A stretch of 64,000 bases of DNA from contig CAWIAD010000002.1 of the NCBI GenBank assembly GCA_963833985.1, positions 4,576,001-4,640,000 of the forward strand. The letters run 5' to 3'. The position numbers and the translations under genes are program-made. Positions within the stretch are counted from its first letter, which is position 1. The number at the start of each line of letters is the position of its first letter. Below are positions 35,199 through 45,818 of the stretch, in pieces. Below the pieces are notes generated by a model. That model made no database searches. It saw only the letters and a program-made list of their open reading frames with translations, and was not told the DNA's origin. The stretch comes from an uncultured Planctomycetaceae bacterium. Lineage in GTDB: Bacteria; Planctomycetota; Planctomycetia; Isosphaerales; Isosphaeraceae.

Positions 35199-35358
35199 AC
35201 GGTTTTGATGCCTGGGTGAAACATCTGGCAGGCAACGAGAGGCAGCGCGGGCCCGAGGGGAACATATCTCCGGAACCTCGGGTCCGGTAAGATGCCGTTT
35301 GCGTCCCGGGCGCGGTCCGCGTGGCGACCGCCCGTGTGCGCATGGGGAGGATGCGGCA

Positions 35359-38300
35359 ATGGGGCGAGACTGCGGTTGTTCGGGGCAGTGCGGGCCGCAA
35401 AAAGGCGATGTTTCGCGGCGTGAGTTCATCGAGCTGACAGGTCTGGGCGCGGTGGGTGCCGTGCTGGGCGCCTCGTCCAGCGTTGCGGGTGAGAATCAGC
35501 GCCCGAGCACCAAACCGGAAGACCTTGATCGCTGGAAGCAAGCGCTGCTTGGCCCAGCATCACCGCGGGTTTATGATTCCGCGACGCATACCGATGCCCG
35601 GATGCATCTGGGCGGAGTCGGAACCGGCAATTTCGAGATCGGGGCCGACGGCCAGTTCACCACCTGGCAGCTCTTCAACACGCTGCGCGATGGCGAGCTG
35701 CCGTTTTCCTTCCTGGTTCGCGCCGGCGGGACCACGCGCTTGCTCCAGACCCATGGCGGACCCGGTTGGCCCCGCATCAAGCAGATTGCGATGACCGGAG
35801 AATATCCGGTCGCCACACTTCACTTCAGTGATCCCGAGCTCCCGGCGCAGGTCGAAATGCTCGCGTTCTCTCCATTCTCTCCGCTCGACACGAGACTTTC
35901 GTCGATTCCGGCCGCCGTCTTCCTGTTCAAGGTCCACAACCCCACACAGGCCCCGCTGAAGGTCTCGCTGGCGGCGTTGCTCTTGAACCCGGTCGGATAT
36001 GACGCGGCCGGGCCGATTGATGGTCACCAGCACCCTAACTTTGGGGGCAACCGCAACGAGGTCCTTCACGACGCGGGCGCGACGGGTCTGGTGTTGAAGG
36101 CCGAGGCAGGAACGGACCCCACGATCGACGGCAAGGTGTTGATCATCACGCCTTCAAATCTCAAGGGCCTGGCCGCACCCCCGCGTGACTGGCCGGAGGC
36201 GCTGCGTGTCGAGGTGCTCGAGCAGCCCCTGCAATCAGGCTTCAAACTCGACGACCCCGCTCGCACCGTGATCTGGATGGAGGAACCCGCGGTCGATCTC
36301 TCCCTGGCATGGCTCACGGCCGCGCGCACCGCCGTCCGCGCGGGAGCGACTCTCGTGCTCTCCGGCCGGTCCATGCCCTTGCTGAAGGCCTACGGAGCCG
36401 CCTCTGCGGGCAAGCCGCTCGCCTCCGGGACGGTCCGCCCGGACATCCTGTTCGAGGACTTCGAGCACGGCTACACGAACTGGCGGGTGGCTGGCAAGGC
36501 CTTCGGACATGGCCCTACCGGCGGCACGCTTGCCGGCCAGCAACGCGTGAGTGGATTTGAAGGAAAAGGGCTGGTGAACTCGTTTTTTGAAGGGGACGAC
36601 ACCACCGGCCGCCTGGTCAGCAAGACGTTTCCGATCGAGCGCAACTTCATCCGTTTCCTCGTCGGCGGAGGCGTCCGCGCCACGACTCAGCTTCGCCTGG
36701 TGATCGAGGGCAAGGCCGTCCGGGCGACCTCCGGCCGCGACAATGAGCGGCTGCAACCGGCATTCTGGGATGTTTCCGAGTATCTCGGCAAGACGGCCCA
36801 CCTCGAGATCGTGGACGAGCAAACCGGACCCTGGGGCCACATCAACGTCGATCAGATCGCCTTCAGCGACCGGGTTAGCGACCACGCCACGCTCGAATTG
36901 CTCGAGGAACTGCTTCCCGTGCACTTTCGGGATGTGGTCTCGAGGCGAACCGCCGGAGACGACCGGCACGAGCGGATCGAGCTCGTGGGCAGCAGCGACC
37001 GCGAGGGAACCGCATGGGGCAACGTCGGTCCCCTGCGAGTCGTCCGCCGGCCGGTGGGCAAGGGACAGGCCGTACTGGCACTCGGGCCAGTTCTCGAGCC
37101 GGATCAGGCGGCTCTCATCGCCCCGCGGCATCGCGCGTTTGCCGCGCTTTGCAGCCTGGTCGGCGTGAATTACAAGGCTCCGGTCGGGGTCACCCGCAAG
37201 GCGCCTGGCTTCGGCAGCCTGGCGCTGGCCACCACGGCCGCGGAGGCCAGCGTGCTGCCGTCGTTCGATGACTGGAACACCGCATGGCGCCAGTTCGCGG
37301 ACACCGGCCATTTCACCCGGCCCGACGAGGCGCGGACCAGCGCCCCCACTCCCCCTGGCCGGACGACCAGCGGCGCCGTGGCGGCAGGCCGGACGATCCC
37401 CGCGGGCGCCTCGCTCGAGATTCCCTTTCTGCTCACCTGGAACTACCCCAACAAGTACAACGAGGCCGGAGTCTGGATGGGCTGCCACCACGCGACGGTC
37501 TGGACCGACGCGACCGCGGTGGCGCGCGACGTGAGCGGCAACCTTGCCGCGTACCGCGACAAGACCGAGCGGTTTCGGAAGACCTTCTACGATAGCTCGC
37601 TGCCTCACTGGTTGCTCGACTGCCTGACCTCGCAGGCCGCCATCATCCGGCACATCGGAGTCGTCTTCCGGATCGCCAGTGGCGACATCTTCGGTTGGGA
37701 AGGTTCCAACGGCTGCTGTCAGCCCACCTGCACACACGTTTGGGGCTATGAGCAGACCCTTGCCAGGCTCTTTCCCGATCTTGAGAAAGAGATGCGGCGG
37801 ATCGATTTCCGCCATCAGCAGCGCGCCGACGGCGGCATCAACAACCGCACGGACGTTCCATCGCCGCCACATCCCACCGGCGAGCAGCCCTTTACCGACG
37901 GTCATGCGAGCTGCATCTTGAAGGCCTACCGCGAGGCCCTCAATCACCCCGACGACTCGTGGCTGCGGGCCTACTGGCCCGGCGTCAAGCGGGCCCTGGA
38001 ATATCTCATCGCGCGCGACGCCGCCGGTTCAAACGGCGATCCCGACGGCATCCTCCAGGACGACCAGTGGAACACCTATGACGAGGCCTTGCACGGAGTG
38101 ACGAGCTTCCTGAGCGGTTACTACCTGGCCGCGCTGAGGGCCGGCGAAGCGTGGGCTCATCGCGTGGGCGACGACGCGGCCGCCCAGCGCTTCCGCGTGA
38201 TCTTCGAGAAGGGGCAGCAGAACCTTCAGAAGCTGTGCTGGAACGGCGAGTATTTCGAGCAAAAACTTGACGATTACCGCCAGCGAAAAGGTGAGGTCGG

Positions 38301-39093
38301 CCCCGGGTGCATGAGCGATCAGCACATCGGCCAGTGGTGGGCGCATCAGCTCGGGCTGGGCTACCTCCTGCCCCGCGAACGCATCGTCGCATCGCTCCAG
38401 GCGATCTTTCGGCACAACTGGAAGCCCGACCTCACCGGCTGGAAGCACGCACCGCGTGCATTCGCCGGCAACGGTGACAAGGGTCTCATCATCTGCACCT
38501 GGCCGCGCGGAGGTCGTCCAGACCATGTCATGCTCTACTCCGACGAGGTCTGGACGGGCATCGAGTACCAGGTTGCCGCGCACATGATCTACGAAGGAAT
38601 GATCGAGGAGGGGCTTGCCATCATCAAGGGCGCTCGCGACCGCTACGATGGCATCCCCCGGCCGCCGATCGCACGAAATCCCTGGAACGAGATCGAGTGT
38701 GGAGGCCATTACGCGCGGGCCATGTCATCGTGGTCCATCCTGCTGGCTCTCTCCGGCTTCCACTACGATGGCCCGGCCCGCTCGCTGCGGTTTGCCCCGC
38801 AACTGAGGCCGGAGAGCTTCAAAGCGTTCTTCACCGGCCCCGAAGGATGGGGAACACTTCAGCAGTCCCGTGATCAGAGCGGCCAGCGCAGCACGATCTC
38901 GGTGGTCGATGGCCAGCTTCCCATTGCTGAGCTTGTCCTGGCGGTGCAGAACCCCGTCCGTAAGGTCGAGGTCAAGCTGGGAGAAGTCGCCCTGCAAGCC
39001 CGGTTCCAGCGTGCTGGCGACGACGTCCAGATTGCTCTGGAGTCGCCGCAGGTCGTACAGGCCGGAGAGATTCTGGCCGTCCATCTGACCTGA
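35359..39093 (+). CDS. Tat-exported GH116 family glycoside hydrolase with an inserted carbohydrate-binding-like domain
   Basis: SRREFI Tat motif; LGGVGTG, GEYPVA, GWEG..GCC..TCTHVW, NTYDE, EVWTG, NPWNEIECGGHYARAM. Confidence 0.85.
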   Translation: MGRDCGCSGQCGPQKGDVSRREFIELTGLGAVGAVLGASSSVAGENQRPSTKPEDLDRWKQALLGPASPRVYDSATHTDARMHLGGVGTGNFEIGADGQFTTWQLFNTLRDGELPFSFLVRAGGTTRLLQTHGGPGWPRIKQIAMTGEYPVATLHFSDPELPAQVEMLAFSPFSPLDTRLSSIPAAVFLFKVHNPTQAPLKVSLAALLLNPVGYDAAGPIDGHQHPNFGGNRNEVLHDAGATGLVLKAEAGTDPTIDGKVLIITPSNLKGLAAPPRDWPEALRVEVLEQPLQSGFKLDDPARTVIWMEEPAVDLSLAWLTAARTAVRAGATLVLSGRSMPLLKAYGAASAGKPLASGTVRPDILFEDFEHGYTNWRVAGKAFGHGPTGGTLAGQQRVSGFEGKGLVNSFFEGDDTTGRLVSKTFPIERNFIRFLVGGGVRATTQLRLVIEGKAVRATSGRDNERLQPAFWDVSEYLGKTAHLEIVDEQTGPWGHINVDQIAFSDRVSDHATLELLEELLPVHFRDVVSRRTAGDDRHERIELVGSSDREGTAWGNVGPLRVVRRPVGKGQAVLALGPVLEPDQAALIAPRHRAFAALCSLVGVNYKAPVGVTRKAPGFGSLALATTAAEASVLPSFDDWNTAWRQFADTGHFTRPDEARTSAPTPPGRTTSGAVAAGRTIPAGASLEIPFLLTWNYPNKYNEAGVWMGCHHATVWTDATAVARDVSGNLAAYRDKTERFRKTFYDSSLPHWLLDCLTSQAAIIRHIGVVFRIASGDIFGWEGSNGCCQPTCTHVWGYEQTLARLFPDLEKEMRRIDFRHQQRADGGINNRTDVPSPPHPTGEQPFTDGHASCILKAYREALNHPDDSWLRAYWPGVKRALEYLIARDAAGSNGDPDGILQDDQWNTYDEALHGVTSFLSGYYLAALRAGEAWAHRVGDDAAAQRFRVIFEKGQQNLQKLCWNGEYFEQKLDDYRQRKGEVGPGCMSDQHIGQWWAHQLGLGYLLPRERIVASLQAIFRHNWKPDLTGWKHAPRAFAGNGDKGLIICTWPRGGRPDHVMLYSDEVWTGIEYQVAAHMIYEGMIEEGLAIIKGARDRYDGIPRPPIARNPWNEIECGGHYARAMSSWSILLALSGFHYDGPARSLRFAPQLRPESFKAFFTGPEGWGTLQQSRDQSGQRSTISVVDGQLPIAELVLAVQNPVRKVEVKLGEVALQARFQRAGDDVQIALESPQVVQAGEILAVHLT

Positions 39094-39125: not shown

Positions 39126-39725
39126 TCATTTCACACTGCCGGCCGCCTGGATGAGCGCGTCGGTGGTATGACGCTTCACATATCCTTCCAGGAAAAGCTT
39201 GGCCCGGATGATACCGTGTGAGTCGACGATGAACGTCCCCGGATACGGCACGCCCACGGCCTTGCCCTTCGCCGCCGGGTTGCGAATGTGGTAGTCCTCG
39301 ATGGTTCGGCTCTCCGGATCGGAAAGGAGCGGGAAGGTGATCTTCATCCGATCGGAAAACCTCTTGAGGACGGCTGGACTGTCATAGCTGATGCCGACCA
39401 CCTGGACGCCCGCTTCCTCGATCGACTTCAGGTCTTTTTGCAACTGGACCAGTTGCGTGCGGCAGAAGGGTCACCAGTCGGCCGAGCGGTAGAAGACGAG
39501 CGCCACCTTGCCCTGCTTGAGGAACTCGTCGAGCGTGCGCGGCTTCCCTGCCTGATCCGGGAGCGTGAAGGCGGGTGCTTTCGTGCCCGTTTCCAGGCCG
39601 GACTTCTCCGGGGGTGCGGGCCGCGGCGTCTGCTGCGGCCAGGCGGCCGCGCAGGAAACCAGGGCCAGGGCTGTGGCGAGCGTCAGCGTGGCGGCCAGGG
39701 CCGGCCGGGATCGCAATTCAGTCAT
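39126..39725 (-). CDS. Secreted AhpC/TSA (peroxiredoxin-like) selenoprotein with UxxC motif (UGA at 39471-39473 read as Sec)
   Basis: ORFs 39471..39725 and 39126..39443 are in the same frame. Read-through gives APAFTLPDQ...LVFYRSADW-U-PFCRTQL...VVGISYD...FPLLSD...PGTFIVD. GGAGA RBS upstream; SECIS-like hairpin downstream of the UGA. Confidence 0.85.
39440..39456 (-). promoter_or_regulatory. Putative bacterial SECIS hairpin
   Basis: mRNA GCAACUG-GUC-CAGUUGC is a perfect stem starting 14 nt after the UGA, with GGUC at the apex. Confidence 0.75.
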
Positions 39726-39757
39726 GATGTGTCGGTCTCCAGGTTCGAGGAATCTGT

Positions 39758-40666
39758 TCAGAGGCCCGCGTACCAGTCGTATCCCTGCTCGGCCCAGTAA
39801 TCCCGCGGGCGGTTGTCCGTGAAGCGGATGGTACCGACCCGCTTGATATTCTTGATGCCATACTTCACGGGGATGATCAGTCTCAGCGGCGCACCATGCT
39901 CGGCACCCAGCGGGCGGCCGTTCATCTCATAGCAAAGCAGGGTCTGGGGATGCAAGGCGCTGGCTGAGTCCAGGCCCACGTAGTACGCCCCGTCAGGAGT
40001 TTCGACGCCCACGTATTCCAGGAGGTCCGCCGGCGGCCGAGACGGTTCGTAAGGCTGCCCGGAACGAGCCGACAGCCCGCACTGCGCGGCCAGATCTGCC
40101 AGGCGGGCGCCTGCCCATGAGACCACGGTGCTCCAGCCCTCGATGCATTTCAGCTCGGTCGTTTGCTCAACCCGGGGGAGCGATCGAACGTCGTCCAGCG
40201 TGCAGAGCAGCCCCGTGTCCGGTGCCCGGGCGCCGGCCAACTTGAGTCGCCAGGACCCCGGATCGAGCCCCTGAAGGCCAGCATCGTCCCCGGCCATGCC
40301 GAGCACTCCGTTGACTCGCGGGTTCCGGCTCCGGCTCCTGGGGAACTCGGGTGCCAGGCGGGACGAACTGAACAGCGCACGCGCCAGTCGCTCGTTGCCT
40401 TCCAGAACCCTGCGCAGGGGCCAGATCAGCTCGTCGTCCGCGCCTCGGGTGACAAGCCAGCGCCAGGCGCCGAAGCCTCCCAGAGCGGTCAGCCCGGCTG
40501 CCGCGAACCCGCGGCGCGTCATCCGGCGCAGCCGGACGTCCGTCGTTTCAAGATCGACGGATGCTGCCACGCTTGCGCATGCGGCCTCAGTTTGCGGCCG
40601 AGCAGCCGAGCCGCCATTCTCGGCTTCGCCGACCCGCGTGGCAGTCTCTTCTTCAGCCCCGGACAT
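39758..40666 (-). CDS. Tat-exported molybdopterin-dependent oxidoreductase (sulfite oxidase family, MsrP/YedY-like)
   Basis: TRRGF Tat motif, LKCIEGWS (Mo-ligating Cys), HPQTLLCYEMNG, HGAPLRL, KYGIKNIK, DYWAEQGYDWY. Confidence 0.9.
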   Translation of the reverse strand: MSGAEEETATRVGEAENGGSAARPQTEAACASVAASVDLETTDVRLRRMTRRGFAAAGLTALGGFGAWRWLVTRGADDELIWPLRRVLEGNERLARALFSSSRLAPEFPRSRSRNPRVNGVLGMAGDDAGLQGLDPGSWRLKLAGARAPDTGLLCTLDDVRSLPRVEQTTELKCIEGWSTVVSWAGARLADLAAQCGLSARSGQPYEPSRPPADLLEYVGVETPDGAYYVGLDSASALHPQTLLCYEMNGRPLGAEHGAPLRLIIPVKYGIKNIKRVGTIRFTDNRPRDYWAEQGYDWYAGL

Positions 40667-41336
40667 GCCCATAAGGTGCATCCTGATCTTGTGCAAGCTC
40701 GACACCGATGACCATCGCACGCAGGTTGTTCCACCCCGCCCGGATCACCTGGGCAATGTGAATCACGAAGAAGGCCACGTACCCCATGGTCAGCAGGAAG
40801 TGCCAGTAGCGCGCTTGCGGGTAGCCGCCCAGCAAGGCGGTGAGCCAGGCCAGTTGCACGGGCTTGTAGATGGCAAGCCCCGTCAGCAGCGATCCCAGCC
40901 CCATGGCGATGACGCCCGTATAAGCGAGGCGCTGCGCTCCGTTGAACTTGCGGCGCGGCAATGGCTCCTTGCGGAGGCCGAGATCGTGCAGAACGACGTT
41001 CCAGGCCTCGCGCGGGGTATCCCGATTGGGAACCAGAAAGCGCCACTCCCCACTCACTACGGTGTAGGCCACGTACAGGACGCCGTTGACGGCAAACAGC
41101 CACATGAACGCGAAATGCCAGGCCATTCCCTCCGCCAGCCGGTGCGGCACATTCAGCCCTTGGTACAGCCAGCCGGGAAAGAACCTGAACAGGGTCAGCC
41201 GGCCGAGCCGGATTGCGTACACGTCGTTGGCCCAGTAGATGAGCAACCCACTGTAGATCATCACCGCCAGGACGGGCGCGTTCAGCCAGTGAAAGAGCCT
41301 GGTCGCCAGCGCGTGTTTCTTTTCAAGCCGTGCCAT
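40653..41336 (-). CDS. Cytochrome b/b6 domain membrane protein, likely partner of the molybdoenzyme
   Basis: RLFHWLN, WHFAFMW, KFNGAQRLAY, ARYWHF, HIAQV; four TM helices carrying His heme ligands. Confidence 0.9.
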   Translation of the reverse strand: MARLEKKHALATRLFHWLNAPVLAVMIYSGLLIYWANDVYAIRLGRLTLFRFFPGWLYQGLNVPHRLAEGMAWHFAFMWLFAVNGVLYVAYTVVSGEWRFLVPNRDTPREAWNVVLHDLGLRKEPLPRRKFNGAQRLAYTGVIAMGLGSLLTGLAIYKPVQLAWLTALLGGYPQARYWHFLLTMGYVAFFVIHIAQVIRAGWNNLRAMVIGVELAQDQDAPYGHVRG

Positions 41337-41412: not shown

Positions 41413-41664
41413 TTACTTTGATGCGCCTTCCATCTTGCCTTTGTCCATGCCGCCCATCTTGTCCTTGTCCATGCCGCCCATCTTGTCCTTGTCCATGCCG
41501 CCCATCTTGTCCTTGTCCATGCCGCCCATCTTGTCCTTGTCCATGCCGCCGTCCGTTTTGACCGCGGCGCCGGGTTCGGGTGCCTCGTTGTTGCAGCCCG
41601 TGGGCGGGAGGACCAGGCAAGCGGCCAGTGCCGTGCCCATGATCATGCGCAGTGGGTTCCGCAT
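41413..41664 (-). CDS. Met-rich MXKDX-repeat lipoprotein
   Basis: Signal peptide ending LPPTGC, followed by five GGMDK(D/G)KM repeats. Confidence 0.85.
   Translation of the reverse strand: MRNPLRMIMGTALAACLVLPPTGCNNEAPEPGAAVKTDGGMDKDKMGGMDKDKMGGMDKDKMGGMDKDKMGGMDKGKMEGASK
41431..41550. repeat. 24-bp tandem repeat x5 (coding)
   Basis: Unit catcttgtccttgtccatgccgcc starts at 41431, 41455, 41479, 41503 and 41527; the first copy has two mismatches. Confidence 0.95.
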
Positions 41665-41792: not shown

Positions 41793-42365
41793 TCATTCAT
41801 AGAATTTCGCGAGCAAGCAGTGGGCGACGGCCGCGAATCGCAACGGGTCGTGATAAGTTCTCGCCACGAGCATGGCACCCTCGAGCGTGGAGAGGACGAG
41901 CCGCGCTTCCTTGCGAGCGCTTTCGGTGAAGCGCAGGACTCCGGCCTTCCTGCCCTCGAGCAGTACCCGGCTCAACCAGTTTTCGAGGTCGTCAAACGAC
42001 GCCCTCAGCTCCTCGCAGTTGACGGGCTCCAGGGTGTCCGCGTCGGAGGCGAGCATGCCGAAGGGGCACATGCGATTCCCGGCCTCGATGGTGCTCTGGA
42101 AGAGAGCGATGAACTGCCCGAGCTTCTTCCTGGCATCGGTCGCCTGGCGATCGACCTCCTGGAGTGCGAGCGACACGCGCTGGCGGTGCCGCGCGATGAG
42201 CGCGCGGCACAGATCGGCCTTCGTGGGAAAGTGATAGTGCAGGCTCGAGGTCCGGATCTGTAGCCGGCTGGCCACGTCCTTGATGCTGAACCCGTTGTAG
42301 CCGCGCGTCTGGAGGAGCTGCTGTGCAACATCGAGTATCATGGACGCCGTGTCGTTTCTCTCCAT
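41793..42365 (-). CDS. TetR/AcrR family regulator (NemR-like)
   Basis: ILDVAQQLLQTRGYNGFSIKDVA...SLHYHFPTKADL HTH, then RMCPFGML and TLEGAMLVAR. Confidence 0.9.
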   Translation of the reverse strand: MERNDTASMILDVAQQLLQTRGYNGFSIKDVASRLQIRTSSLHYHFPTKADLCRALIARHRQRVSLALQEVDRQATDARKKLGQFIALFQSTIEAGNRMCPFGMLASDADTLEPVNCEELRASFDDLENWLSRVLLEGRKAGVLRFTESARKEARLVLSTLEGAMLVARTYHDPLRFAAVAHCLLAKFYE

Positions 42366-42374
42366 GGCGAAAGT

Positions 42375-42396
42375 CTACCGATCGATCGATCGGTAG
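42375..42396. promoter_or_regulatory. Perfect 22-bp palindrome, putative TetR operator
   Basis: ctaccgatcgatcgatcggtag equals its own reverse complement and lies 9 bp upstream of the TetR start codon. Confidence 0.75.
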
Positions 42397-42548
42397 TCAA
42401 GCAGCGATGCGATGATCCCCTGGCTCGAGGGTACCGATCGAATACCGCGCGGTCCGCGAGCGTCATGCTGGAACGCAGCGACGTCGACCATACGCCTTTT
42501 GCGACGGCTGCGCGGGACGAACCACCTGAAGCTGGGAGCACACCCGAC

Positions 42549-43397
42549 ATGAAACCCATGATCTCCGTTCTCGCCGGTTGCCTCGCGGTCGCAATGCTTG
42601 CCGGCCAGGCCCGCGCCGGCGATGAGCCCCGCTCGAAGCCGGCACGCATGGTCCTGGTGGAGCTCTTCACGTCGCAGGGCTGTGACATGTGCCCGGAGGC
42701 GGAGCGGCTTCTGGGCGCGCTCGCGTTACAGAACCGTAACGTGGTCCCCCTCGCGCTGCATGTCGATTACTTCAACGATCCCTGGAAGGACCCCTTTTCC
42801 GACAAGCTGCACAGCCAGCGCCAGGCGTCGTACAATGAGATTTACCGCGGGCCCAAGAACGCCCAGTATGGCCTGTACTACACGCCCATGGTCATGGTGG
42901 ACGGGACCCTGCCGGTGAACGGCCGCGATGCCAGGGGCATCCAGAATGCCGTCAAGCAGGCCGCCAGGCGCTCGCCCCAGGTGAGCTTGGCGGCAACGCT
43001 GGGCCCCGGCGCGGAAGACCGCAAGCGTGATCTGCGGCTGCGGGTCTCCGCGTTGACGCCCGAGCTGAGCGGACGTGAGGTCCTGGTCTGCGCGGTGCTG
43101 CGCGACGACCTGGTCGTGACCCAGGTTCCCTCCGGCGAGAATGCGGGCAAGGCCTTGACGGCACGATTCCCCGCGCGTTCCACTCAGTTTGAACTGGTCC
43201 GGCTGGACGGGAAGAAAGAAAGCCGCTTGCACTTCCCGTTTCAGCTCCAGCCCGCGTGGAACGCCAAGAATCTCGGTATCGTGGTATTCGTGCAGGATCG
43301 CGAGGCGGGGACCGTCTACCAATCGGCCCTTGTTTCCTGGGTGGAACCAGAGGGCGTCCGTGCCGGTGGTCGCGAGACAGGCGCTCACCGGCAATGA
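42549..43397 (+). CDS. DUF1223 family secreted thioredoxin-fold protein
   Basis: Signal peptide; VELFTSQGCDMCPEA, LALHVDYF, WKDPFS, YTPMVMVDG, GENAG. Confidence 0.85.
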   Translation: MKPMISVLAGCLAVAMLAGQARAGDEPRSKPARMVLVELFTSQGCDMCPEAERLLGALALQNRNVVPLALHVDYFNDPWKDPFSDKLHSQRQASYNEIYRGPKNAQYGLYYTPMVMVDGTLPVNGRDARGIQNAVKQAARRSPQVSLAATLGPGAEDRKRDLRLRVSALTPELSGREVLVCAVLRDDLVVTQVPSGENAGKALTARFPARSTQFELVRLDGKKESRLHFPFQLQPAWNAKNLGIVVFVQDREAGTVYQSALVSWVEPEGVRAGGRETGAHRQ

Positions 43398-43450: not shown

Positions 43451-45818
43451 ATGGGTTCAGAGTCCACCTCCAGGAACGACCCCGAACCGGTGGACGACCT
43501 TCCGCGCTCCGGCTCGCCGCAGCCGGCCAGGGCGCCCGAGCAAACCTACTGCGATGCCACGATCGAGTTCCGGCCCGGAGAGGTGGGCAACGCCGAGGGG
43601 CCGCTCTCAGGCAGGACGCTCTCGCTTGCCGAGTATCCGTTTCTGGAACCTCCCCGCGGTGGCGACGAGCTGGGCTGGCTGGCGCACTACCGCGTGCTCA
43701 GACCGCTCGGCTCAGGGGGCATGGGGCTCGTGTTCCTGGCCGAGGACACGCACCTGCTTCGACCCGTGGCCCTCAAGGTGATTCGCCCCGAGCTGGCGGG
43801 CAACCCCGAGGCAGCGCCCCGCTTCCTCCGCGAGGCGCGCACCGCGGCCGCCATCAAGCACGACAACGTCGTGACCATCTACCACGTGGGCGAGGCGCGC
43901 GGCGTGTCCTACCTGGCCATGGAGTATCTCCAGGGCATTTCCCTGGCAGCCTGGCTCGATCGCGGCCGGCAGCCGTCCATCGAGCTCCGCCTGCGCATGG
44001 GCCGGGAAGTGGCCTCGGGGCTGGCGGCCGCGCACCGGCTCGGCCTGGTGCACCGCGACATCAAGCCCGCGAACATCTGGCTGGAGGCCCCCAGCGGGCG
44101 GGCCAAGATCCTCGACTTCGGCCAGGCCAGGGCCGAGAGCGAGGACACGCAGATCACCCGCTCCGGCGCGATCATGGGTACGCCGGCGTTCATGTCCCCC
44201 GAGCAAGCCGAGGGCAATCCGGTCACGTTCGCGACCGACCTGTTCAGCCTGGGAGGCGTCCTCTACCGGCTCTGCTGCGGCCGCCTCCCCTTCGAGGGGA
44301 AGACCATCCTTTCGGTGCTGAACGCCCTGGCCACCCAGACGCCCACCCCTCCGCTGGCGTTCCGGCCCGAGACGCCCGAGCGCTTCAGCGCACTGGTGAT
44401 GCGGCTCCTGGCGAAGAGCCCGCAGGCCCGTCCACCCTCGGCCCAGGCCATCGTCGATGAGATCCGCGCCATCGAACGACAGCTTGCCGCCTCGAGGCAG
44501 CGGACGAGCATCACAACCGATACCGAAACGGGCAGCAAACCCGTGGAGACCATGCAGGTCAAGCCGGTGGATGCCGCGAGCCTCAGAGCCCTGGTACACG
44601 CGCGGCTTGCCGACCGCCGGCCCAGCCGCTGGCTCATGCTCTCTGCCGTGGTGCTCATTGTGGGAGTGCTGACTTCGGCGGCCTGGCTCAGCCACGGCGG
44701 ACCGGGGCTGCATCGCGGGCCGGAGCGCGGCTCCCCACTGGCGGGACGCGGATTCCGCAGGCCTCCCGCTCCCGAAGACTTCGTCAAGGACCCGCCGCCC
44801 GACGAGCCGCCGCCACCTCCCCGGCCACCCGGTGAGTTCGGACCGCGGTGGTCCGGCGCGCCCCGCCGAGCCCTCGACCCCGAACCGCCAGATGCGAAAG
44901 CTCACGACCTGGATCAGGACATGAAGCGCCTGGAGGCGGCTGGCGTGGTGCTGAGGCCGCCGGACGCGAAGCAGGAAGCGCAACGCTCGGAGGCGGCCGC
45001 AGCGAAGATACCCGCCTCCGACCCGGGCGCCATGGCTGCGCCCAACGCACCAGGGCTGGCTCTCGCACCGGCCGGTCCCGCGGGGCCGGGCGCGTCAGGT
45101 CCGACAGCCGCATCAGGTCCGCCAGCCACATCAGGTCCGCGAGCCGCGTCAGGCGGGTCCGCAAGGCCGGCCACTGCCGGCCCGGCGGCAGAGACGAGGG
45201 CGGCATCCTGGGGCAAATTCATCGATCTCGACGGCGATTGCTCGTTCACGCTCGATGAGGCCGATCAGACCGCGACGATGCAGGTGCCGGGAAGGCCGCA
45301 CGCCCTCAGCGCAGAGCTCGGCCGCCTCAACGCCCCGCGCATCTTGCAGCCGGTGAGCGGCGATTTCGAGGCCTTTGTTCGCGTGCTGGGTACCGAGCAA
45401 GTCGCGGGTCGAGCGACCATGACCGAGTATCCGCCCTACCACGGGGCGGGGATCCTCCTCTGGCAGGATGCCGGCAACTACGTCCGGCTGGAGATCGCCA
45501 CCGACCTCCAGCGCGGCAAACCTCGCCACTACGTCAACTTCGAGTATCGCCAGGGATATCGGCTTGCATCCTCCCAGGGTCAGGTGGCGCCGACCGGCTC
45601 GGCCTACCTTCGGTTCGCGCAAGAAGAACGCGGTCGCGGCCTCGTTCAGCCCCGACGGCGCCCGGTGGATATCCTTTCCCGCATTGACCGTGAATCTTGA
45701 CCCCGACAGCCAGGTTGGAGTGGTCGCAATCAACACGTCCAGCAAGCCTCTGACCGCGCGCATCGAGGGTTTTCGCGTCGCGGCGGCCAGGCCAGAGCGC
45801 AAGGAGGATCACCCCTGA
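43451..45818 (+). CDS. Membrane Ser/Thr protein kinase with C-terminal beta-sandwich (DUF1349/ConA-like) domain; apparent frameshift near 45620
   Basis: LGSGGMG, VALK, HRDIKPANI, DFG, GTPAFMSPEQ and TDLFSLG; TM WLMLSAVVLIVGVL. The C-terminus continues in ORF 45468..45818 (SFSPDGARW...VGVVAIN). Confidence 0.85.

Follow-up and report, generated by a model that had tools for sequence, protein, structure and literature searches.

Are two short open reading frames (ORFs) that share one frame and are separated only by TGA two genes, one damaged gene, or one gene in which UGA is read as selenocysteine (Sec)? This question is raised by a locus in a 64,000-nucleotide (nt) stretch, hereafter the window, of contig CAWIAD010000002.1 from an uncultured Planctomycetaceae bacterium of the Isosphaeraceae (positions 4,576,001 to 4,640,000 of the forward strand; assembly GCA_963833985.1). 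A sequence-only reading of the window had proposed a single gene for an exported, peroxiredoxin (Prx)-like selenoenzyme of 199 residues that standard gene callers would split at the first Cys codon of a CxxC motif. No strand was given in that reading; the gene lies on the minus strand, with its ATG at 39725 and its terminal TGA at 39128-39126. Conventional ORF calling divided the locus into pieces of 84 and 105 residues, and public databases store the two halves as separate proteins. Translation with TGA as U confirmed one frame of 199 residues, in which the sole internal TGA is residue 85 (39473-39471) in the context FYRSADW-U-PFC. From the comparisons described below we consider it near-certain that the two ORFs are one gene and that its UGA is recoded as Sec, because the TGA is conserved, Cys and Sec are paired at its column, a covarying hairpin tracks the TGA, and the genome carries the Sec genes. 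With a probability of roughly 0.7, the product would be a recoded, probably exported 'Prx-like 1' protein that likely serves as an envelope selenol/thiol:disulfide oxidoreductase.

The Prx-like gene was matched in 41 of the 121 genomes of the family (E value of 1e-25 or better). Exactly one TGA was present in 42 of the 43 matching places, the exception beginning past that codon. The same TGA occurs in 40 other family genomes and is therefore not a read error. Among 80 genome loci of more distant homologues, the Sec column held TGC or TGT in 75 and TGA in 5, although one search pattern for this set was Cys-coded and biased it toward Cys. Metagenome loci gave TGA in 48 of 80 and Cys in 31, with one locus misaligned. 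U/C85 and C88 were invariant in all 89 rows of an alignment assembled without the database entries that have Trp at this column. The stop stands at the first Cys of CxxC, as the sequence-only reading had it.

SelB bound to a hairpin delivers Sec-tRNA to UGA. In the Prx-like gene the segment GCAACTG (39456-39450) pairs with CAGTTGC (39446-39440), forming seven Watson-Crick pairs that start 14 nt past the TGA. The sequence-only reading had described this perfect stem correctly; of the GGUC apex that it also named, the first G belongs to the stem as its final base, and the loop consists of the 3 nt GTC. The folding energy is ordinary (-8.9 kcal/mol, z of -0.61, with 47 of 200 shuffles equally good), and the features that exceed chance are position and conservation rather than energy. 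At this distance, a stem of 7 bp without mismatches and with GT at its apex was found in 33 of 35 TGA-form loci, a set that counts this gene and two loci duplicating others, compared to none of 75 Cys-form loci; the genome background was 159 of 267,068 TGA trinucleotides (0.06%). Metagenome loci behaved similarly, with stems of at least 5 bp in 44 of 48 TGA loci vs 1 of 31 Cys loci, and 7-bp stems in 28 of 48 vs 0 of 31.

The stem was perfect in each of 30 family loci (30 of the 43 matching places, own locus included). It occurs there in three synonymous versions, in 16, 10 and 4 loci, all of which encode QLVQL and rely on codons that are rare in this genome (CAA, 13% of Gln; TTG, 7% of Leu). 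Shuffling of the arms gave a mean of 12.4 perfect stems and no trial of 20,000 reached 30, a test that is inflated by relatedness. When pairing was counted on 23 sequences, 99.4% of the cells were paired vs 0.6-46% with the partners slid, and four of the seven pairs were altered on both sides. The locus is a clean case of a selenocysteine insertion sequence (SECIS) maintained inside a coding sequence through compensatory synonymous changes. The published bacterial SECIS (bSECIS) model specifies a loop of 3-9 nt, a stem of 4-16 bp, a G within the first two bases of the loop, a distance of 16-37 nt from the UGA and a minimum free energy of at most -7.5 (PMC13188914). The hairpin agrees with these values, having a 3-nt loop, 7 bp, G first, a distance of 21 nt and -8.9 kcal/mol.

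The sequence-only reading had named homologue alignment and a search for selA, selB, selC and selD as checks on recoding. The homologue column held Cys or TGA, and all four genes were found in the host genome (G000; 10.2 Mb, 96% complete). selA (511.8 bits), selB (370.9) and selD (345.6) scored above their curated cut-offs, the tRNA-Sec (selC) has the anticodon UCA, and selD itself carries an in-frame TGA. selA was present in 37 of the 41 genomes carrying the Prx-like gene; the four misses are genomes of 54-76% completeness. Planctomycete Sec machinery has been published previously (PMC4807772).

What would such a protein do? The AhpC/TSA domain (PF00578) spans residues 47-175 (E value of 7e-36; 123.3 bits, cut-off 26). 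None of the 20 NCBIfam redoxin families listed (Bcp, SelL-related, ResA, PrxU, WAxxUGC) reached its cut-off, the best scores being 71.2 against 140 and 56.3 against 120. The protein has the Prx-type thioredoxin fold, and BCP/PrxQ/AhpE peroxiredoxins (PDB 2cx3, 4gqf, 5epf, 4x0x) come closest to it among solved folds and in sequence. The PxxxT/SxxC motif of peroxiredoxins is replaced by RSADW-U-PF-C, where Arg80 stands for the Pro and Sec85 for the Thr. Residue 162, in the column of the catalytic Arg of BCP, is Pro in 75 of 89 rows and His in 14. Cys88 is the only Cys of the mature chain. The earlier label 'peroxiredoxin-like' therefore holds for the fold alone, as the catalytic residues of true peroxiredoxins are absent, and these residues make thioredoxin-type selenol/thiol oxidoreductase chemistry fairly probable. 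By eye the N-terminus looks like a typical signal peptide, and it is conserved in kind in the 30 family loci. Its LVSC lipobox-like stretch is not conserved, a Cys within the first 40 residues being found in 6 of the 30 loci, two of which are not true starts. On this basis the protein is likely exported.

Once the protein is exported, Sec85, which opens the active-site helix, would attack an oxidised partner, either a disulfide or a sulfenic acid. Cys88 would then resolve the adduct to give an Se-S bond, which a DsbD-type membrane carrier may re-reduce. Full-length DsbD is encoded in the host genome, and one relative (L074) carries a DsbD_N fusion (28.3 bits, cut-off 25).

The same selenoprotein could instead act as a peroxidase or hypochlorite scavenger, with Sec85 oxidised by hydroperoxide (ROOH) or hypochlorous acid (HOCl) and resolved by Cys88. 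Arg80, invariant in 89 of 89 rows, or Arg185, found in 88 of 89, would substitute for the peroxiredoxin Arg, and the kinship with BCP/PrxQ/AhpE noted above is as this account would have it. The gene also adjoins an mrpX-yedZY-like string, a type that has been linked to hypochlorite defence (PMC4436054, PMC8315932). However, the Pro and Thr of PxxxTxxC and the conserved Arg are all substituted, and Sec occupies the Thr position rather than that of the peroxidatic Cys. Moreover, Caulobacter PrxL, which is another exported Prx-like protein, is reported to have no detectable peroxidase activity (PMC3322552). We therefore consider a peroxidase unlikely.

It is far less probable that the TGA is decoded not as Sec but as Trp or Cys, be it through an alternative code or through leaky read-through. 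Trp does appear at the column in 14 of 120 database homologues (P0011, P0012, P0017, P0020 and ten more), the others having Cys (101) or starting past the codon (5). However, the gene itself terminates normally at TGA, and TGG was found at the column in none of the 80 metagenome loci. TGA is also present in the DNA relatives closest to the Trp-called proteins (54-82% identity), and one Trp-called cluster includes a 73-residue fragment terminating at the Sec codon. Because of these three observations on TGG, DNA relatives and the fragment, the Trp entries are probably a gene-caller artefact in which TGA was translated with code 4.

A genuine stop, whether in a pseudogene, through an assembly error or between two small genes, would fit the separate database entries and the presence of at least one frameshift nearby in this assembly but is largely refuted by the recurrence of the TGA at that column in 40 other genomes of the family and in 48 metagenome loci, by the conservation of both flanks, and by a covarying hairpin that follows TGA and not Cys.

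The coordinates of the gene and its surroundings are collected in Table 1. The Prx-like selenoprotein gene ends a same-strand string of genes for a TetR regulator, a Met-rich lipoprotein, cytochrome b561 and a molybdopterin oxidoreductase, from which it is separated by a 32-nt gap. Genes for a DUF1223 protein and a Ser/Thr kinase are divergent from this string. The molybdoenzyme scored below canonical MsrP (85.8 bits, cut-off 207), and its nearest plasmid matches are 35% identical 'molybdopterin-binding protein' entries. The mature Met-rich lipoprotein of 60 residues contains 16.7% Met and 41.7% charged residues; no match to it was found in Pfam or NCBIfam, and peptides resembling it were seen in 8 related loci. 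The palindrome directly upstream of the TetR start is perfect and is a possible TetR operator. The sequence-only reading had taken the other breaks in the window for indels. One gene was checked for this, the kinase gene (43451-45818, plus strand); compared with an intact relative it shifts frame near 45616-45618, possibly through an assembly indel. A gene for a 1,264-residue GH116 glycoside hydrolase, which bears a twin-arginine-like leader, is convergent (35299-39093, plus strand) and unrelated to the selenoprotein.

Table 1. Features of the Prx-like selenoprotein locus and its surroundings. Coordinates are window positions except in the last row, which refers to a related locus.
Feature	Coordinates	Strand	Basis or remark
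Prx-like (AhpC/TSA, PF00578) selenoprotein gene, 199 residues	39126..39725	-	Read-through translation and domain match
In-frame TGA, predicted Sec85, opening U-P-F-C	39471..39473	-	Translation and homologue columns
Upper stem-loop of the bacterial SECIS, with 7 Watson-Crick pairs and a GTC loop 21 nt past the TGA, within the QLVQL codons	39440..39456	-	
Likely signal peptide with a basic N-region and an Ala/Leu core, probably cleaved before Gln of AWPQ	39636..39725	-	By eye and 30 N-termini
GGAG ribosome-binding-like site, within the 32-nt gap behind the upstream gene	39734..39737	-	Direct sequence reading
Molybdopterin oxidoreductase (PF00174), YedY/MsrP-like, twin-arginine-like MTRRGF stretch	39758..40720	-	Profile matches
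Cytochrome b561 (PF01292), YedZ/MsrQ-like position	40653..41336	-	Profile matches
Met-rich lipoprotein, MDKDK repeats, MrpX/BcrX-like	41413..41664	-	Composition
TetR-family regulator, heading the same-strand string	41793..42365	-	Profile matches
Sigma70-like promoter match overlapping the 22-nt palindrome (42376-42397)	42372..42400	-	Weak: 1 found vs 0.5 expected in shuffles
DUF1223 (PF06764) thioredoxin-like protein, CDMC motif	42465..43397	+	Single copy in the genome
Second predicted selenoprotein, 468 residues	L134:7577-8980	+	

Neighbourhoods were compared over about 7 kb per side in the own locus and 40 others, a set that includes two distant paralogues and several loci clipped by contig ends. 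The most constant redox neighbour was DUF1223, found in 21 of the 41 loci, followed by the molybdoenzyme (12), cytochrome b (9), the Met-rich lipoprotein (9) and TetR (3). DUF1223 also lies beside more distant homologues (L064, L204, L205). In a cluster spanning 12 loci a regulator labelled by eye as GAF/PAS/sigma54-type repeatedly takes the place of TetR upstream of the Met-rich gene (L133, L135, L136, L140, L141, L143, L148 and others). An additional Cys-type Prx-like paralogue was seen in the same island at L133, L136, L154 and L155; at L133 and L154 it is of the FYRGGWCPYC type with about 30% identity.

The selenoprotein might be expressed together with the Met-rich lipoprotein, cytochrome b and the molybdoenzyme in an envelope oxidant-stress response, a step that is more weakly inferred than the chemistry itself. 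The labour could then be divided such that the Prx-like protein covers thiols and the Met-rich and MsrQP-like genes cover methionines. We give this stress-module role somewhat less than an even chance. Synteny among relatives is not independent functional evidence, and for this reason the role is no more than a lead. More tentatively still, soil planctomycetes may possess a selenium-dependent envelope redox island directed against reactive chlorine or oxygen. Its relay could conceivably be formed by DUF1223 and the exported Prx-like selenoprotein, joined in many lineages by a second selenoprotein in tandem, and it is similarly doubtful whether this relay would act beside a Met-rich scavenger and an MsrQP-like reductase.

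The second predicted selenoprotein has 468 residues, with a signal peptide, an AhpC/TSA redoxin domain containing FASW-U-xGC, its own hairpin, tetratricopeptide repeats and a C-terminal domain that has two Cys and matches nothing in Pfam. It lies immediately downstream of the Prx-like gene in 12 of the 41 loci. Overall it was found in 21 of the 121 family genomes, 19 of which also carry the Prx-like gene, 13 in direct tandem; it was not found in the host genome with the query used. Its nearest NCBIfam model is WAxxUGC_long (62.9 bits, cut-off 300), its motifs are absent from Dataset S1 of the Global Ocean Sampling (GOS) survey, and it is possibly more novel than the Prx-like selenoprotein. The C-terminal domain of this second selenoprotein appears to be joined to the Prx-like one in a single fusion at L162 (G113:C89, near 125592-126300).

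Other likely Sec codons were seen in the host genome, all on G000:C2. These are in genes for a formate dehydrogenase alpha subunit (4474173, minus), an AhpD-like CxxU protein (5649228, plus), a SelW-like CxxU protein (4295799, minus) immediately upstream of selD, SelD itself (4295487, minus), and a signal-peptide-bearing CYR-U protein without a clear hairpin (2610171, minus); the AhpD-like, SelW-like and CYR-U labels were assigned by eye. In-frame TGA codons with coding-like flanks in a thioredoxin-like gene (G000:C2 6459766, plus) and an ECF-sigma-like gene (G000 C1 1759399, plus) are either candidate Sec codons or nonsense changes.

These results call for a correction of annotation, as databases split the gene or place Trp at the active site and the NCBIfam models miss the protein. 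Reviews list the family as predicted only (PMC9312934, PMC13188914), and the neighbourhood, of which we found no description in the open-access literature, supplies a concrete functional lead. The added value of this locus is its setting beside probable oxidant-defence genes. If the redox-island reading is true, it would give a physiological role to DUF1223 and to the long-catalogued, predicted 'Prx-like 1' family.

How does the protein compare with known systems? In reviews, the 'Prx-like thiol:disulfide oxidoreductase' (PF00578, UxxC/UxxU) figures among the predicted selenoprotein families (PMC9312934, PMC13188914), elsewhere given as 32 proteins in 28 organisms (PMC5029168), and 225 'Prx-like 1' sequences were counted in the 2008 GOS survey (PMC2398784). 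In Dataset S1 of that survey RSADW-U occurs 13 times and QLVQLQ 11 times, and signal-peptide-bearing forms follow the '#Prx-like 1' header. Also after that header, the read JCVI_READ_1092963671785 has nearly all the conserved motifs of our protein, among them VALVFYRSA, WUPFC, QLVQLQ, ISYDS, ITFPLLSD and PGTF, a kinship judged by eye from common motifs. Our protein and the published family have in common PF00578, UxxC, Cys homologues at the U column and a SECIS in the coding region. The host here is a soil planctomycete, whereas the GOS entries are marine reads, and this protein has a single domain, whereas many relatives are longer or fused to DsbD_N. The type has thus been catalogued since 2008 and its biology is not new. 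The main inference of the sequence-only reading holds; its novelty was overrated, since the published GOS collection of selenoproteins had already included this subfamily.

Compared to BCP/PrxQ/AhpE, this protein has Arg80 for Pro, Sec85 for Thr and Pro162 for the catalytic Arg, bears a likely signal peptide and lacks a separate resolving Cys. The yedYZ-mrpX genes of Azospira suillum and bcrXQP of Brucella function in hypochlorite defence (PMC4436054, PMC8315932) and share with this locus a gene order in which a Met-rich exported peptide of the MXKDX type is followed by cytochrome b and a molybdoenzyme, the Met and charged fractions of the peptide being 16.7% and 41.7% here vs 20% and 44%. The systems differ in that TetR lies upstream here and SigF/anti-sigma there, the peptide here has a lipobox-type Cys, the molybdoenzyme here falls under the MsrP cut-off, and the available text on those operons does not mention a Prx-like selenoprotein.

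Finally, Caulobacter PprX and PrxL are substrates of ScsB, with no peroxidase activity detectable for PrxL (PMC3322552). PprX is a true PrxQ and PrxL belongs to cd02969 with two distant cysteines and no CxxC, and Sec is not described for either protein in the available part of that report. They are exported proteins with a Prx fold, as the selenoprotein proposed here probably is, and their reduction by a DsbD-family carrier provides a model for its electron supply.
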